In this document: piece by piece, positions 21,506 to 40,210 of the stretch
Layout: each line of letters opens with the position of its first letter
Numbering within the stretch: position 1 is the first letter of the stretch
Origin: a virus
Lineage: Duplodnaviria; Heunggongvirae; Uroviricota; Caudoviricetes
DNA: 56,811 bases
Virus record (IMG/VR): IMGVR_UViG_2698536317_000003
Strand: one strand, 5' to 3'
Notes under the pieces: generated by a model
Database searches by the model: none
What the model was told of the DNA's origin: nothing
Seen by the model: only the letters and a program-made list of their open reading frames with translations
Position numbers and translations under genes: made by a program

Positions 21506-21570
21506 TTTGTTTTCTCCACATACAAAAAAAATCCCCGGCATCGCGCCGGGGAGTTACAGGAAATAAGAAA

Positions 21571-30346: not shown

Positions 30347-30817
30347 TTATTCTTTGCGTAAGCACTGCGTTTTGATGTAGCCCTGAAGCGCGGTTATCTT
30401 CGCGTCTTTCTCTTTTAGTTGTTCTCTGAGGGATAAATAAGATTGTCGAGCAGAGGCATCAAGTTCGCAGGTGGCTCCATCAATGCGGCTGGCGGTTCCG
30501 GCGGGGTCGGACACTCGCACGGGTATTGCGTTGACGCGCAACCGGATAGTACCGTTATCAATGCCAGTGCGCAGATCGGCAATGTCAGATCTGATAGCTT
30601 TAATCTCATCGTGATACCTCTTATCAAGTTTTGACAGTTCGGCGTTTCGCTCCTTCATCTGCTGAATAGTGTTACTTGCCGTTTTCAGTGCGCCTTTCGT
30701 TACCGTGACTTCTTCCTGCAACCTTGCCGCCTCACCCTGGTAATAACATGTTACGGCGGTCAGTCCGGCAATAATGCAAACAACAACGGCGATGATTAAC
30801 GTCTTCACCTTGTCCAT
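30347..30817 (-). CDS. i-spanin (Rz)
   Basis: N-terminal TM plus periplasmic coiled coil; resembles recalled lambda Rz; contains embedded Rz1. Confidence 0.8.
30415..30609 (-). CDS. o-spanin (Rz1), lipoprotein embedded in Rz in another frame
   Basis: MRLKL...VLSGCAS lipobox and proline-rich [23 protein letters not shown] resembling lambda Rz1. Confidence 0.75.
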   Translation of the reverse strand: MRLKLSDLTLPICALALITVLSGCASTQYPCECPTPPEPPAALMEPPANLMPLLDNLIYPSENN

Positions 30818-31296
30818 TTCTCACCCCATTCGCAAACGGCATATTCAACCTCGCGGCGGTTTACCAGGCCTTGCCACTTCTTACCGCCAGCGTATACCCA
30901 GCGTTTAAGCTGTGCGCACGCTTCTGATTTCTTGCCGTCATTGAGTAGCTTTAATAAGGTTGATGTTTTGAAGTTGGTTGCGCCTACGTTATAGGCGAAT
31001 GAATAAAGTGCTGCGCGGGTAAAATCTGATATTTCGACTTTAATATAGGGATCGATAGCTTTTGCGGTTTTATGCAGATCTTTGTTTAACAAAGCATCGC
31101 ATTCTGATTGCGTGTAAGTTTTACCAAGCATGATGTCTTTTCCGGTGTGACCATGACAAACAGTCCACACACCAACAACATCACGATAAGGATCGTACTC
31201 CACGCCCTCTAATGGCTTAATCATCACCGCCGCAATTGCTATCGCCCCACCAGCCGCCGCCGCAACAATCTTGTTTTTCAGCGATTGGCTAATCAT
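30805..31296 (-). CDS. SAR endolysin (phage lysozyme with N-terminal signal-anchor-release domain)
   Basis: N-terminal Gly/Ala-rich TM followed by E...D...T lysozyme catalytic motif. Confidence 0.85.
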
Positions 31297-31497
31297 TTAC
31301 TTGTTCCCCATTCGCGCGTCGTGTTCCTCTTGCGCTCGCTTGTTCTCCTGTGATTTAAAGTAATAATTAACGGCAAATGTGCCTACGGTTGATAAAATAC
31401 CCACAAAGACGGCAATGTCATTGATGGTTATCGCGCCGAAAAAAGCAGTTACGGCCCCAGTCACATACGCGCACGCCTCCCGTATTCTGTCGAACAT
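31297..31497 (-). CDS. Holin (small two-TM, pinholin-like)
   Basis: 66-aa ORF with two hydrophobic helices and charged C-terminus, immediately upstream of endolysin. Confidence 0.75.
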   Translation of the reverse strand: MFDRIREACAYVTGAVTAFFGAITINDIAVFVGILSTVGTFAVNYYFKSQENKRAQEEHDARMGNK

Positions 31498-31504
31498 AGA
31501 TTTT

Positions 31505-31540
31505 CCTCCAACAAAGCAAAAACCCGGCGCGGGGCCGGGT
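31505..31540 (-). terminator. Intrinsic terminator immediately upstream of holin RBS (tR-prime-like position)
   Basis: ACCCGGC-GCGGG-GCCGGGT hairpin followed on the minus strand by TTTTTGCTTTGTT. Confidence 0.55.
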
Positions 31541-31604
31541 AATTACAATTTCGCATTGTTAGGAAATATTTTAATCTGTTTGTTTGCGCTCTACAAATAC
31601 GGCG

Positions 31605-31832
31605 TTAACGATAAGGTCCAAGCAAACGAACAAGCCATTCTTTGTATTTGACGGCAACGTGTTTTGGTGCAAAATATCCTTGCACTTCCTTACCGCCTCG
31701 CCACTCCCTTCTAAATTCGCACTCGTTTTGATACTCCTTTCCGCTTTTACTATCCAGCCAGCAAGCAGGTGAGTAACCTTTTTCACTTCCGAACCGATGC
31801 CATATTGATGACAGTAAAACCCTTTCTTCCAT
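31605..31832 (-). CDS. Hypothetical protein (75 aa, Trp-rich, basic)
   Basis: ATG-initiated ORF upstream of holin terminator; overlaps alternative-frame ORF 31571-31786. Confidence 0.3.
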   Translation of the reverse strand: MEERVLLSSIWHRFGSEKGYSPACWLDSKSGKEYQNECEFRREWRGGKEVQGYFAPKHVAVKYKEWLVRLLGPYR

Positions 31833-32204
31833 ATTGCCCCCCCAACAAATACGGCTTTACGCTGTTCTGTATATCAGTCCGTTATCAAGCAATGTTTGCA
31901 TGTGTTCGCGATCCATGTCGCTTAATTCCCAATAAGGAACATCTTCATTCCTTATCATCACCTCTTCGCCTCTTACCAAATAGGCGATGTCAAATACCTT
32001 ATGCAAATAGATGCCATCTTCGATCTCGTTCATAGGTCGCTAGCCTTTACCAGTTCACCAGCATCAAGAAATATTTTAATTGTTTCTCGCGTCGTCTTAA
32101 TGATTGGCGCTACCCACTCGCCACCGCCAACGCGGATACGAATATCATCGCCTTCTACGCGGTAAAACAGCCTGTCGACTACTGTTGCTGCGTACACGCC
32201 ATCT

Positions 32205-32405
32205 TCAATCATTTTTGCGCTCCTTAATGGCTCGCATGATGTTAATACGCATAGCGTCACTGAATGCGTATATCGTAATGAAAGGCCAGAAGACTAGCTC
32301 GAACCAAATAATGCCGTCACTATCAACAGCTTTCTGAAAAGCGCCCATTAAAATGACACCAGCCAGGTAAATTATAACTACCGCAACAATAATGCATTCA
32401 ATCAT
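32205..32405 (-). CDS. Small membrane protein (MIECIIVAVVIIYLAGVILMGAF...), full-length copy
   Basis: Starts inside 227-bp duplication copy 1 and extends into unique sequence. Confidence 0.4.
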   Translation of the reverse strand: MIECIIVAVVIIYLAGVILMGAFQKAVDSDGIIWFELVFWPFITIYAFSDAMRINIMRAIKERKND

Positions 32406-32529
32406 CTTCACCCCCAAGATCATGATAAATATCGTTAGGGTCTTCACCATGTTCCTCGCAAAAACGCTCAAATAGCGCCCAATTTTCAGAAAGAAACATG
32501 ATTAATAAATTTTTATACCACTCTTCCAT
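32398..32529 (-). CDS. Acidic small protein MEEWYKN...GGEDD (43 aa), copy 1
   Basis: GAGGA RBS; identical copy at 32625-32756. Confidence 0.4.
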   Translation of the reverse strand: MEEWYKNLLIMFLSENWALFERFCEEHGEDPNDIYHDLGGEDD

Positions 32530-32539
32530 TTAATCATCC

Positions 32540-32632
32540 TCAGTCACTATCAACAGCTTTCTGAAAAGCGCCCATTAAAATGACACCAGCCAGGTAAATT
32601 ATAACTACCGCAACAATAATGCATTCAATCAT
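32540..32632 (-). CDS. Truncated small membrane peptide (30 aa) created by the duplication junction
   Basis: Same N-terminus as 32205-32405 ORF, stop created at repeat junction. Confidence 0.3.
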   Translation of the reverse strand: MIECIIVAVVIIYLAGVILMGAFQKAVDSD

Positions 32633-32756
32633 CTTCACCCCCAAGATCATGATAAATATCGTTAGGGTCTTCACCATGTTCCTCGCAAAAACGCTCAAAT
32701 AGCGCCCAATTTTCAGAAAGAAACATGATTAATAAATTTTTATACCACTCTTCCAT
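32625..32756 (-). CDS. Acidic small protein MEEWYKN...GGEDD (43 aa), copy 2
   Basis: Identical to copy 1; start abuts stop of upstream ORF. Confidence 0.4.
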   Translation of the reverse strand: MEEWYKNLLIMFLSENWALFERFCEEHGEDPNDIYHDLGGEDD

Positions 32757-33011
32757 TTAATCATCCTCATCGTCTTCATGTTCAGCCAGGAACTCATCAA
32801 CCACGCGGCAAGTCACTGGCGGGATGTATTCGAAATCATCAGAATCAAGATCAAGCGTCCGGCTGTCGCCGTCATCGTCCAGCGTATTCATCCCTAACTC
32901 ACCGAAAGGGCCATACCCAATATGGCCCAGGTATTCGCATCCAGTAGTAAAGCCAGGGTATTCGCCTTTGCACCAGATCTTGTATAGCTTACTTGATGCG
33001 CTCAATTTCAA
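32757..33011 (-). CDS. Hypothetical protein (84 aa, acidic C-terminus)
   Basis: ORF in small-gene block. Confidence 0.35.
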   Translation of the reverse strand: MKLSASSKLYKIWCKGEYPGFTTGCEYLGHIGYGPFGELGMNTLDDDGDSRTLDLDSDDFEYIPPVTCRVVDEFLAEHEDDEDD

Positions 33012-34871: not shown

Positions 34872-35150
34872 TTACCTCTTATAAGTAACAGCATCAGAGA
34901 TCAATAACACCGCCAACATCTCACCGTTATGTAACGGATCTGGAATACCAAAAAATATATCGCTTTTACTGTCAGGCACTACTACGCACATATTGCCTTG
35001 TTTATCTTCATGTACAAACCACGGCTTTTCGTGTGGCTCAAACATTCCAAAAAGCAATTTAAGATCTATCTCTTCACCCTTCGTGAATAACGATACATCC
35101 GTTGTAGCGATAACTAACGCTTTCTGATCTGCTGTTTTCTTTGTTCTCAT
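34872..35150 (-). CDS. Hypothetical protein (92 aa)
   Basis: ORF in small-gene block. Confidence 0.35.
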   Translation of the reverse strand: MRTKKTADQKALVIATTDVSLFTKGEEIDLKLLFGMFEPHEKPWFVHEDKQGNMCVVVPDSKSDIFFGIPDPLHNGEMLAVLLISDAVTYKR

Positions 35151-35425
35151 TACTCTGTACCCCAGCGGTCTATGCTGATTAAAAAGTCACGGATAGCGCG
35201 GCGTTCGTCGCGCGTTGGCTTGCGCTTCCGGTAAATCTTGAAATCAAACCATTCTTTTTCTTGTTCGAAATCCAGGTCGTAAGCAAGTGCCTCAATGTAT
35301 CCGCACTCGTGATACTGGTACGCCACGCCAGCACGAACAAAAAAGCGGGTTTTATCCCGCTTGTGTTCATAGATACGCATATTCACCCCGTTAAGCAGTT
35401 GTGTAGCTGTCCACCAGCTTTTCAT
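35150..35425 (-). CDS. Hypothetical protein (91 aa)
   Basis: ORF in small-gene block. Confidence 0.35.
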   Translation of the reverse strand: MKSWWTATQLLNGVNMRIYEHKRDKTRFFVRAGVAYQYHECGYIEALAYDLDFEQEKEWFDFKIYRKRKPTRDERRAIRDFLISIDRWGTE

Positions 35426-36462: not shown

Positions 36463-36646
36463 CCCGCTTGTAAATTTTGACAGGCTTAATAGGTATGGCA
36501 GGTAATTCTCCCTCGTTTAATGCGCTTGCCATGCCCAATATTAAACGCGCTTCTGCACCAGTTACTTTTTTACACCATGCACCGCCCGTTTTATCTTCGA
36601 ACAAGATAACAGCAAACTGATCGTTTATTTCCAGCTTATCCATCAT
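36443..36646 (-). CDS. Hypothetical protein (67 aa)
   Basis: Overlaps stop of upstream Q-like gene. Confidence 0.35.
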   Translation of the reverse strand: MMDKLEINDQFAVILFEDKTGGAWCKKVTGAEARLILGMASALNEGELPAIPIKPVKIYKRGDDNEA

Positions 36647-37365
36647 TCACCCCGTGTAACTCGTTTAATTTCGTTATCAGCACGCGCCTCTTCTTTGAAC
36701 AATTCGGCAATGGCGTCTTCATAGAAAGCACGGTATTTCTTCCACCACGTTGATCGGCTTACCGGGAAAACAAGCTGATTAACCGCCTGCCGTACAAGAT
36801 CTACAGGGAAACGCGAGTACCCGCGCCCGCCGCAATGCTGGCACGTTTTGAACACTGGCATTTCCGCCGCTTCACTGGCTGCTTTATCCGGTACTTCGCC
36901 ACGGCCCTTGCATTGTTTACAATGATTGCGAACTGTCCCATGCCCCTTGCATTTTTTGCAAAGGTGTTTTTCTCCGTATTCGTCAAACGTAAATTTATAT
37001 CCGCCGCACTCCATACAAGTTTTTTCCGTCGCGGCGCTTTGGCAATAATCCCGAAACGCGAAAACGGCAACAAGAATAATGAGATCATTGCGTTTGGCCT
37101 CGTCCAGTTCCATAACGTATTCATAATCTTTTGCCATAGCCCTTAAACGCTCTGTAAGCAAAACTACGGCCTTATGTTTTTCGGCTTGTGATAGCTCCAT
37201 CTTTCCCAAAAAAGCGCTATAGCCAAGCTCTACGCGCGATTGCGCCATACCCGCAGCGGTTAGCGCATCCGTCGTATTAAGAGCTTCCGGGGACGTGCCC
37301 CGGCTTTCGTCAGATAATCGCGGTGATTTAGGAAAGTGGAATTTTAGAATGGATTCTAAATTCAT
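36643..37365 (-). CDS. Putative antitermination protein Q-like with four DnaJ-type CxxCxGxG zinc-finger repeats
   Basis: 240-aa ORF downstream of rusA; repeats CMECGGY, CKKCKGHG, CKQCKGRG, CQHCGGRG; assignment tentative. Confidence 0.4.
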   Translation of the reverse strand: MNLESILKFHFPKSPRLSDESRGTSPEALNTTDALTAAGMAQSRVELGYSAFLGKMELSQAEKHKAVVLLTERLRAMAKDYEYVMELDEAKRNDLIILVAVFAFRDYCQSAATEKTCMECGGYKFTFDEYGEKHLCKKCKGHGTVRNHCKQCKGRGEVPDKAASEAAEMPVFKTCQHCGGRGYSRFPVDLVRQAVNQLVFPVSRSTWWKKYRAFYEDAIAELFKEEARADNEIKRVTRGE

Positions 37366-37547
37366 TATTTGCCCTCATAACGTGCCGCCAGCCGTTTACG
37401 ATCAGAAATGGATTGCACCAGCTTTCTTTCGAACTCTTTCAGCGCAAGTAATTCGCGCATGTGGAAAGCCTGGATTTGTCGGACCGTCTCTAAATCACGC
37501 TCGTCGCGCTGAATATCTATTTGCAGATCTTTAACTTCGTTTTTCAT
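37365..37547 (-). CDS. Hypothetical coiled-coil protein (60 aa)
   Basis: ORF between rusA and Q-like gene. Confidence 0.3.
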   Translation of the reverse strand: MKNEVKDLQIDIQRDERDLETVRQIQAFHMRELLALKEFERKLVQSISDRKRLAARYEGK

Positions 37548-37951
37548 TGCTCACCCCACATATTAGTCGCGTATTCGTCAATATCCGGTAGTAGGTCGCC
37601 GCGTTCGCGGATCTTAATAAACAAGCGTCCGCCTTTTACCTTCCGGCAGCGAACAATTTTTATTGAGTCGATTTGCCCGTCATCCTTCCAGAATCCGGCA
37701 TAAGTAAGGCTGTCAAAAAGGCATTTAGGGATATTGTCCAGATCTCTGATCCGGTTATCCGGCGGCGCGGCGTAAATGGCAATTGCCAGTCGGCAAGGTA
37801 GGTTAATATTTAAATTTAATAGCTCGATGATGTCTCTTACCTGCTCCCTGTATTCTTTTCCAACCTTGCTGATATAGTGAAAACCTCGTGAATGTCGGTA
37901 ATAGCGGTTATTCGATGGCGGGTAAGGCAGGCTAAATGTATACTCGTTCAT
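37544..37951 (-). CDS. rusA: Holliday-junction resolvase RusA
   Basis: N-terminus MNEYTFSLPYPPSNNRYYRH and LDNIPK motif match recalled RusA. Confidence 0.85.
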   Translation of the reverse strand: MNEYTFSLPYPPSNNRYYRHSRGFHYISKVGKEYREQVRDIIELLNLNINLPCRLAIAIYAAPPDNRIRDLDNIPKCLFDSLTYAGFWKDDGQIDSIKIVRCRKVKGGRLFIKIRERGDLLPDIDEYATNMWGEQ

Positions 37952-37964
37952 GCCGCCTTTCTCC

Positions 37965-38441
37965 TTATTTTCCGTGATTTGGATGAAAACCATATTTAAT
38001 TTCAGCTTCTTGTCTCGCTTTGATTGCGTCCTCCATTCTGTCGAATCTGCCTAAAGTAATACATTTATAATTTACCCAAATTTGCGAATACCATTTCTTG
38101 CGCTCTTTATCCCAATAAACACCAATATAACCACTGGTATTGTTTTTGTTTTTTGGTCTATTCTTCGCGTTCTCCTTGCCTAACACCAATCTAAAATTAT
38201 TAAGCCTGTTATTGCTAGGGTCATGATCCAAATGATCTATCTCGTACCCTTCCGGGATTGGGCCGTTGTGCATTTCCCATATAATACGGTGCGCTTTATA
38301 CCATCTACCAAAAAGCCTAACGCGTATGCGACCAGTATCATTTGGACACCCAGCAATACTCCCGGCTTTCATTCTACCGCGTGACTTTTTCCATATCAGG
38401 TTAATACCATCGTAACAAAACCATTCGTGCCAGTTCATCAT
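37965..38441 (-). CDS. HNH homing-type endonuclease
   Basis: Motif HRIIWEMHNGPIPEGYEIDHLDHDPSNNRLNN plus AP2-like C-terminus; AT-richer than neighbours. Confidence 0.7.
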   Translation of the reverse strand: MMNWHEWFCYDGINLIWKKSRGRMKAGSIAGCPNDTGRIRVRLFGRWYKAHRIIWEMHNGPIPEGYEIDHLDHDPSNNRLNNFRLVLGKENAKNRPKNKNNTSGYIGVYWDKERKKWYSQIWVNYKCITLGRFDRMEDAIKARQEAEIKYGFHPNHGK

Positions 38442-38456
38442 GCAATACACTCCCAA

Positions 38457-39071
38457 TCATGCGCATTGCGCTCTCTCCTTCCTTAATGTGTCTAATTTAC
38501 GCTGATATATATTTATTATTTCTTTGCATTCTTCGATTGTCCATTTGTGAGTCTCGTTATTATTTTCTAATGCCTCCACCCTTTCTAATCCTATTTTTTT
38601 TATTAAATTTATTCTGTATAACTCAACATTGCCGTCCAATACCTGATTGCAATGTCGGCATTGTAGGTTTACGTTATCCTCGTTAAAGCGAAGGTGTCCG
38701 GCTGCCGCTACTGTGCGCCAGTGTCCAGCATCAGCGCCGCATTGTTCGTAATAATAAGTCCCGCACGATATACACGGCTGACCCGCGTCACGTTCGCGGA
38801 TATAGGCATTAAATACAGCTTGTGCCTGCTTTAACCAATAACTACGCGGATTTAACTGCTTCCGCTTCCGGTTGCGCTCTTCCCGCTGGCTATCACGGCG
38901 TCTCTTCCGCTCCATAGCCTTCATAGCCTTCTCACGGTCGCGGCATAGCTGATCAAACTTCAGCTCTTCCAGACATTCATCGCTGCACCATGTTTGATTG
39001 TGATATTTAGGCTCAAAAAAAACGCCGCAGCATTTGCAACGGCGTCTTATGGGTTTTTTAGGGTTCTGCAT
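38457..39071 (-). CDS. ninG: Recombination protein NinG
   Basis: Cys-rich motifs and C-terminal HKWTIEECK resemble recalled lambda NinG. Confidence 0.8.
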   Translation of the reverse strand: MQNPKKPIRRRCKCCGVFFEPKYHNQTWCSDECLEELKFDQLCRDREKAMKAMERKRRRDSQREERNRKRKQLNPRSYWLKQAQAVFNAYIRERDAGQPCISCGTYYYEQCGADAGHWRTVAAAGHLRFNEDNVNLQCRHCNQVLDGNVELYRINLIKKIGLERVEALENNNETHKWTIEECKEIINIYQRKLDTLRKERAQCA

Positions 39072-39085
39072 AAAAACCACCCCGA

Positions 39086-39262
39086 TTATTTTTGATTCTC
39101 TGTTTCGTTCAGCCTTTCGGCGTGTCCGGCCCTTAGCCAATGTTCTAAGCATTCGTTGCACTCGTTACAGCCTCCTTTCTTCGTGCTGCATACATTGCAC
39201 ATTGCACGCATGACGCTCTCTCGTTCATAGTCGTCATGCCATTGGTAATTATCAAAAGGCAT
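39086..39262 (-). CDS. NinF-like zinc-ribbon protein
   Basis: 58-aa ORF with CNVCS...CNECNEC Cys cluster. Confidence 0.4.
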   Translation of the reverse strand: MPFDNYQWHDDYERESVMRAMCNVCSTKKGGCNECNECLEHWLRAGHAERLNETENQK

Positions 39263-39421: not shown

Positions 39422-40210
39422 TCAGTCCGGCAAAACGCGGTTGAGCGTAGTACGATTGATGGCCCTGTCGTTAGCCAGGAACACAGCACGGGCAAAGCCG
39501 CGCGGCGTTAGTGAGCGGATCATCTTAGTGCGTTTCGACTTTCCTCCCAACTTCGCGTGCTGCTTACTGTCTTCCCATTCGTCCGGCATTGGCACAGGCC
39601 GGAACAGCGGCTGTTTAAATCCGTTGCCGCACCAAATACAAGTTTTCTTCGTGTATGCGTCGCGGGCCGCTATGTATTCAGGGAAGGCAGGATGTTTGTC
39701 ATCTTCCGGCAGGTAGCCACCGTAAGCGCACGGGTTGAAAATAAAATCAGGTTTACGCCATAGCGTTGACAGTGCGCCCACCGGATTTTCCACCATCCAC
39801 GGCACGTTATACATATTCGCCAGTTTTTCTACCAATTTTGCGTTATACGCCGCCTTTACCTGGAAAGCAGGATCTTTTTTTCGCTTATCAGCGAACCAGC
39901 GAGCACCAGACACAGCGAGATCGTCGCACGGCGGAAAGCCCAATATAATGTCAGGTGCTGGATAAGAAGATAATTCAGGTGAGAACATTGCCAGGAAATG
40001 GCTGTCAATCCATACGTTAACGTATTCAATATTCGGATGAATGATTTTAACGCCTTCATAATCGCCGTGGTTTGCGCCGTCATAGTTGAAGCAATAGCAC
40101 TTATACCCAGCTTCCGCCCAGTCTTTAACGGCGTACCCGCTGCCGTCGTACAGCGACCACACAACCCAACTTCTAAGCCAATTATTTAACCAGTGTTTAG
40201 CCTTGCTCAT
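39422..40210 (-). CDS. Divergent DNA cytosine-C5 methyltransferase-like protein
   Basis: Motif I-like LYDGSGY, motif IV-like GFPPCDDLAVSG, motif VI-like ENPVG. Confidence 0.45.
   Translation of the reverse strand: MSKAKHWLNNWLRSWVVWSLYDGSGYAVKDWAEAGYKCYCFNYDGANHGDYEGVKIIHPNIEYVNVWIDSHFLAMFSPELSSYPAPDIILGFPPCDDLAVSGARWFADKRKKDPAFQVKAAYNAKLVEKLANMYNVPWMVENPVGALSTLWRKPDFIFNPCAYGGYLPEDDKHPAFPEYIAARDAYTKKTCIWCGNGFKQPLFRPVPMPDEWEDSKQHAKLGGKSKRTKMIRSLTPRGFARAVFLANDRAINRTTLNRVLPD

Follow-up and report, generated by a model that had tools for sequence, protein, structure and literature searches.

The gene at positions 36643..37365, on the minus strand of the window (the whole 56,811-nt stretch of viral DNA analysed here), encodes a 240-aa protein that, judging by sequence comparison, is a full-length homologue of Q, the transcription antiterminator of phage lambda (Q-lambda). 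From the combined analysis, we consider it very probable that this protein is the late-gene antiterminator of a temperate coliphage of the mEpimmI group, that it represents a long-arm form within the Q-lambda family, and that it acts at a promoter-terminator cassette placed before the holin gene. The protein has already been named as a Q-family member in public records, and in this respect there is little new in the assignment.

The initial annotation proposed a Q-type late regulator and named a profile search against the Q family as a way to check it. That proposal was borne out by sequence, profile and fold, and by a cassette resembling lambda PR' ahead of the lysis genes. The Pfam scan placed the protein in PF03589 (Antitermination protein Q) with 102.2 bits (E 1.7e-29), above the cut-off of 26.7, and gave no match to the Q21 (PF06530) and Q82 (PF06323) families at E up to 1. 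Residues 1-238 were matched by phrog_127, 'anti-termination protein Q-like' (2.9e-78), and the best sequence match in the PDB was Q-lambda itself (7UBM/7UBN, chain Q; 1.5e-38, 34% identity). The two proteins are colinear over the whole length: residues 1-114 correspond to Q-lambda 1-114 and residues 148-238 to Q-lambda 117-207, including the C-terminal helix, with 55% identity within residues 1-60 and 32-39% in other parts. A structural model was predicted with AlphaFold2 from 23 homologues (mean pLDDT 78.5) and compared with the PDB using Foldseek; only Q-lambda chains were significant (probability 1.0), i.e. 7ubn_Q (E 7.6e-14), 7ubm_Q, 4mo1 and 7ubj-l, with TM-scores of 0.65-0.75 when normalised to target length. 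The resemblance to Q-lambda thus extends to the fold, a body with a zinc-ribbon arm, and to the identical spacing of four cysteines presumed to bind zinc.

The structure of Q-lambda provides a framework for reading this protein. Its four-helix body (residues 61-113 and 153-207) includes a helix-turn-helix, and a zinc ribbon, the 'arm' (residues 114-152), touches the Q-binding element (QBE) at positions 11-13, region 4 of sigma and the zinc-binding domain of the beta' subunit (PMC9388147). The N-terminus is disordered, and residues 1-44, together with NusA, refold into a 'torus' in the RNA-exit channel (PMC9388147). The equivalent of this torus-forming segment, codons 1-44 (37234..37365, minus strand), is conserved in the window protein, and its putative role is taken from the Q-lambda work (PMC9388147). 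Antitermination by Q-lambda genetically requires V6, G39, C53, H56, L58, L202 and T206 (PMC9388147). Of these, the window protein retains G39, L58 and T206 (as T237), carries I instead of V6, and has its I233 aligned with L202; in a difference from Q-lambda, the flap-tip contacts C53 and H56 are L and M, respectively. Residue 1 of the 240-aa protein pairs with residue 1 of Q-lambda in the alignment, which argues that the start codon of the gene is correctly placed. The Q gene is under strong purifying selection, the dN/dS values being 0.02-0.06 in comparison with phages mEp554 and mEp021.

The most conspicuous difference from Q-lambda is an insert of 33 residues with two additional CxxC motifs. 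The window protein contains four such motifs, beginning at residues 117 (CMECGGYK), 136 (CKKCKGHG), 149 (CKQCKGRG) and 175 (CQHCGGRG). The initial annotation had counted four CxxCxGxG repeats, and this is true only in part: there are indeed four CxxC motifs and three of them fit the longer pattern exactly, but the first, CMECGGYK, is a near miss (CxxCGGxK). Four motifs are more than chance would give, since only 5 of 100,000 shuffles of the protein reached at least this number. All eight cysteines are invariant in the 23 homologues, down to about 35% identity. C149, C152, C175 and C178 align with both CxxC pairs of Q-lambda, the 26-residue spacing being identical, and motifs 3 and 4 therefore lie in the counterpart of the zinc-ribbon arm as defined by this alignment (codons 148-183; 36817..36924, minus strand). 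Motifs 1 and 2 fall within the insert (codons 115-147; 36925..37023, minus strand), which both HMMER and BLASTP alignments to Q-lambda present as one gap of about 31-33 residues at the base of the arm. In the AlphaFold2 model the insert forms two beta-hairpins with zinc knuckles, each CxxC being located at a beta-hairpin knuckle. We infer that the four motifs make up two predicted zinc sites, motifs 1 and 2 forming an extra ribbon and motifs 3 and 4 corresponding to the Q-lambda arm. This pairing is favoured because lambda retains motifs 3 and 4 alone, and motifs 1 and 2 come and go together. An interleaved arrangement of the DnaJ kind (1 with 4, 2 with 3) was also considered and seems less likely, given the identical spacing of motifs 3 and 4 in lambda and the co-occurrence of motifs 1 and 2.

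The phage background fits an assignment to the Q-lambda family. The region shows about 89% DNA identity to phages mEp021, mEp010, mEp013, mEp044, mEp515, mEp554 and MagusPhagus, which identifies the window, on the basis of nucleotide similarity, as a coliphage of the mEp021 group ("mEpimmI"). These are Nus-dependent, non-lambdoid temperate coliphages, which need a Q-lambda-like protein and whose N-like system includes three nut sites, one of them upstream of the Q region (PMC11893012). The window shares with them both the gene order and the cassette before the holin gene, and its Q differs from those of mEp554 and mEp021 by 3 to 12 nonsynonymous changes in 240 codons. The annotation of these orthologues is uneven. 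The product of mEp021_37 (gp37) is described as "putative late gene regulator Q" and the MagusPhagus orthologue as "anti-termination protein Q-like protein"; the mEp010 copy is recorded as hypothetical, as is the closest public orthologue, mEp554_49 (gp49; 98.8%; mEp554, locus L001, 12001-12723), which still bears the name "hypothetical protein". By sequence, the latter is clearly assignable to the Q-lambda family of antiterminators, and the practical value of our analysis lies in the annotation of such mEpimmI phages.

All genes from a DNA methyltransferase to the lysis cassette are located on one strand, the minus strand. The methyltransferase gene (39422-40210) and the NinG gene (38457-39161) are followed by an ORF with HNH_3 and AP2 domains (37965-38456), the RusA gene (37544-37993) and a 60-aa ORF (37365-37547), which directly precedes the Q gene and whose stop codon overlaps the Q gene ATG by one base. 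The described context, i.e. a gene following ninG and rusA, holds, with the HNH-AP2 and 60-aa ORFs as additions. In mEp554 and mEp021 the RusA gene directly follows that of NinG, with no HNH-AP2 ORF in between, so that this ORF looks like a homing-endonuclease insertion. Downstream of the Q gene come some 25 small, closely spaced ORFs of unknown function, and then the genes for holin (31297-31497; PF16080, phrog_20), endolysin (30805-31296; PF00959) and Rz/Rz1 (30347-30817; PF03245). The noted distance of 5 kb between this gene and the lysis genes is likewise correct (5,146 nt separate the Q stop from the holin start).

Such a distance appears at odds with the usual arrangement, in which a Q gene and its target are adjacent (PMC9388147); in the window they would be 5.1 kb apart. 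The concern raised by this distance is resolved when it is considered that the target cassette, and not the Q gene, adjoins the lysis genes. Scans of the window revealed no Q-utilisation site immediately downstream of the Q gene, nor any in the 5-kb block. This block is about 2 kb long in mEp021 and reaches about 6 kb in MagusPhagus, while the cassette stays in place, which makes accessory delayed-early genes the best reading of the small ORFs. With the cassette in this position, a variable accessory block of 2-6 kb, presumably delayed-early and independent of Q, would be set apart from the Q-dependent late operon, which would begin at the holin gene.

The cassette itself is compact. The gap ahead of the terminator measures 64 nt and contains the promoter-like elements, which on the minus strand are arranged as follows: a weak -35-like TTGTAG (31596-31591; 3/6 match), 17 nt, the -10 hexamer TAAAAT (31573-31568), the 7-nt spacer ATTTCCT, a putative -10-like, sigma-dependent pause element AACAAT (31560-31555), 14 nt, the terminator and, after about 13-14 nt, the holin ATG. 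As TTGTAG is weak and not conserved in MagusPhagus, we do not rely on it. Between this hexamer and the -10 lies the conserved block AAACAAACAGAT (31585-31574), including AAACAAAC (31585-31578), which five mEpimmI phages have in common, including MagusPhagus with its different upstream flank. The whole block from AAACAAA through the terminator is preserved in mEp554, mEp021, mEp010 and MagusPhagus, also where the upstream flank is unrelated. We regard the AAACAA block as a candidate Q-binding element, because it lies equally far from the pause element in the window and in the distant relative L003 (Q identity 48%), although each internal spacing differs between the two by one base. The terminator reported at 31505-31540 proved to be real, with a stem at 31540-31522 and a T run. 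It corresponds to an intrinsic terminator equivalent to tR', ACCCGGCcccgcGCCGGGTTTTTGCTTTG (31540-31511, minus strand), composed of a 7-bp GC-rich stem, a 5-nt loop and the T run; its RNA hairpin has a dG of -20.3 kcal/mol (z -3.45), and a terminator before the holin gene is annotated in the mEp021 and mEp010 records.

The similarity to lambda PR' is apparent, as in both cases a -10 hexamer is followed, after 6-7 nt, by a -10-like pause element and then by a terminator ahead of the lysis genes. In lambda, AACGAT of PR' is the sigma70-dependent pause element at which Q loads (PMC9388147). The lambda cassette reads TAAATT, 6 nt, AACGAT, with the -35 TTGACT located 17 nt before the -10, and that of the window TAAAAT, 7 nt, AACAAT, followed by the terminator and holin. 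The L003 counterpart (TATAAT, 6 nt, AATAAT) likewise precedes a terminator and holin. Comparable cassettes, also with 6-nt spacers and terminators, were found directly after the long-arm Q genes of phage mEp460 (TAAGAT and AACGAT), a Serratia prophage (TAATTT and AACGAT) and a Citrobacter prophage (TAATCT and AATGAT); these have the same compact layout as the window cassette, which differs from them in not adjoining its Q gene. Unlike lambda, the window has no TTGACT-like site for sigma R4 beside the pause element. The terminated late RNA of lambda is 194 nt long; in the window the terminator starts about 14-20 nt past the pause element, and the predicted terminated RNA is only about 50 nt.

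By analogy with Q-lambda, the following mechanism may be proposed. The Q protein would be produced from a delayed-early transcript and would bind a DNA element in the late promoter that immediately precedes the holin gene (minus strand, about 31596-31555). There, sigma70 would hold RNA polymerase at the -10-like pause element AACAAT, and Q would load on the paused polymerase. The N-terminal 44 residues of Q would then refold, forming a ring at the RNA-exit channel and blocking the formation of terminator hairpins, so that the polymerase could pass the terminator at 31540-31511 as well as later ones, and transcribe the lysis and virion genes. A strong minus-strand terminator-like hairpin at 21552-21532, with a 9-bp stem (7 GC pairs) and a T8 run, fits with a need for processive antitermination.

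Other explanations for these observations were weighed. The protein might be a true Q antiterminator that loads elsewhere, either within the 5-kb stretch of small ORFs or on polymerase arriving from an early promoter. The adjacency of Q genes and their targets, which is the norm (PMC9388147), speaks for such a site, as do a terminator-like hairpin with a T run at 35362-35343 (minus strand), 1.3 kb downstream of the Q gene, and promoter-like hexamers at 35883-35822. However, the hairpin lies within coding sequence (ORF 35150-35425) and the hexamers are no commoner there than in shuffled sequences. Moreover, the Q stop codon overlaps the start of the next ORF and the ORFs follow one another without gaps, both in the window and in L003, leaving no intergenic space close to Q for a promoter-terminator unit. 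The 31-nt cassette motif is unique in the window, where the combination of a tandem -10/-10-like site and a terminator occurs nowhere but before the holin gene, and among relatives it is this cassette that is constant and the intervening block, of 2 to 6 kb, that changes. We therefore hold loading at another site to be quite improbable. It may also be supposed that the Q gene is a relic, dispensable to a phage whose late genes are reached by read-through from the early operon with the aid of the N-like antiterminator Gp17. The N-like system, with a nut site upstream of this region (PMC11893012), and the single orientation of all genes between the methyltransferase and lysis genes speak for this reading. 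Yet the selection acting on the Q gene is not that of a relic, its eight putative zinc cysteines and torus segment are conserved, and every relative examined has kept promoter, pause element and terminator intact; such a cassette would be purposeless without a Q. A relic thus appears highly unlikely.

The cysteine motifs led to the suggestion that the protein might be a different zinc-finger regulator or a chaperone-like factor, and a profile search against the DnaJ cysteine-rich (CR) domain was named as a further check. Its outcome was negative: DnaJ_CXXCXGXG (PF00684) scored 26.4 bits in the Pfam scan, under the cut-off of 32.7, and the NCBIfam scan gave only sub-threshold hits, i.e. DnaJ equivalogs (9-25 bits against cut-offs of 338-619) and anti-TRAP. 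The resemblance is real for the zinc-knuckle motif, with four motifs of the CxxCxGxG type in a row, three of them exact here and all four exact in the mEp010-type alleles described below, but it goes no further. The motif spacing in the window protein (19, 13 and 26 residues) differs from that of the DnaJ CR domain, and DnaJ pairs motifs 1+4 and 2+3, unlike the pairing that the Q-lambda alignment and motif co-occurrence make likely here. The Pfam and NCBIfam scans of the protein identified no J domain, G/F region or DnaJ C-terminal domain; a sequence search of the PDB, taken to an E of 1, returned no DnaJ chain, nor did any appear among the 50 PDB fold matches listed, in which the best match other than Q-lambda had an E of 0.67. 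Among predicted viral structures, the cysteine-rich stretch did produce weak local matches to CR-type/DnaJ proteins (E at least 0.007), but this stretch comprises about 65 of the 240 residues and the remainder is colinear with the Q-lambda body. That the protein is a zinc-finger chaperone of the DnaJ kind, or some other zinc-finger regulator unconnected to antitermination, is in our opinion barely credible.

The preferred reading, that of a Q-lambda-family antiterminator, places the window protein among numerous similar ones. A search of 1.84 billion representative proteins found 172 relatives. The cluster nearest to the window protein, which comprises 981 sequences and shows 98% identity, bears the name "antitermination protein" and has PF03589 and PF00684 among its precomputed domains. 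The CxxC motifs were counted in 74 full-length proteins taken from two protein searches: 26 contain four motifs, another 26 contain three, with CxC at the third position in those that were aligned, and 11 contain two, as in lambda. The span between motifs 1 and 2 varies in the family from about 14 to about 60 residues. The form with four cysteine pairs is also encoded by lambdoid elements, in which it occupies the classical Q position (mEp460, Serratia and Citrobacter prophages). The mEp460 gp50 protein, for instance, has 250 aa and four CxxC motifs, and is recorded as similar to a putative Qin-prophage Q of E. coli IAI39. This protein and its counterparts from Serratia, Citrobacter and Xenorhabdus prophages share the insert site with the window Q, at 30-41% identity, but the lambdoid inserts have about 35-60 residues versus 33 in the window. 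The long-arm form of Q-lambda is thus widespread and probably binds two zinc ions; a Q with such a presumed zinc-binding insert is common, already annotated as antitermination protein Q, and should be considered ordinary. Our literature searches returned nothing specific on four-CxxC Q proteins, and no structural or biochemical study of the long-arm form. While current understanding is not challenged by it, the long-arm Q would make a reasonable comparative target for studies of Q loading.

The insert behaves as an allelic cassette. In phages mEp010 and MagusPhagus the zinc module is present as another allele: over about 90 nt (approximately 36915-37005, minus strand; codons ~120-150) they are only 36-53% identical to the window at the DNA level, whereas identity in the flanks is 90-100%. 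Both alleles occur with the same late-promoter cassette. The insert occupies the position of the Q-lambda region that touches the beta' zinc-binding domain (residues 110-112, 117 and 122-126). This location, together with its variable length and two sharply different alleles, allows for a further suggestion, which we nevertheless regard as unlikely on balance, that residues 115-147 are a swappable module altering the docking of Q on DNA or RNA polymerase, or else a surface exposed to diversifying pressure. If so, exchange of the module could alter the geometry of the Q-binding element or the requirement for NusA, and the diversifying pressure would stem from a host or rival-phage factor.

Several minor features of the region were also recorded. 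The site equivalent to the 35343-35362 hairpin is a predicted terminator in the mEp554 annotation, and the hairpin at 21532-21552 is situated some 5 kb past the terminase genes, following the course of late transcription. Next to the cassette, on its upstream side, a 15-nt direct repeat, TAA[A/C]GCCGTATTTGT (minus strand), occurs at 31593-31607 and 31845-31859, after the stop codons of two consecutive ORFs, and flanks ORF 31605-31832 (phrog_23715). As this ORF is absent from that position in mEp554, mEp021 and mEp010, the comparison suggests that it is a small gene inserted there by recombination. Within the block of small ORFs, in addition, 227 nt are repeated in perfect tandem (32316-32542 and 32543-32769; 100% identical). 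The duplication could be a real recent event or an assembly artefact; it gives rise to two minus-strand ORFs (32205-32471 and 32540-32698) sharing an identical 52-residue N-terminus.
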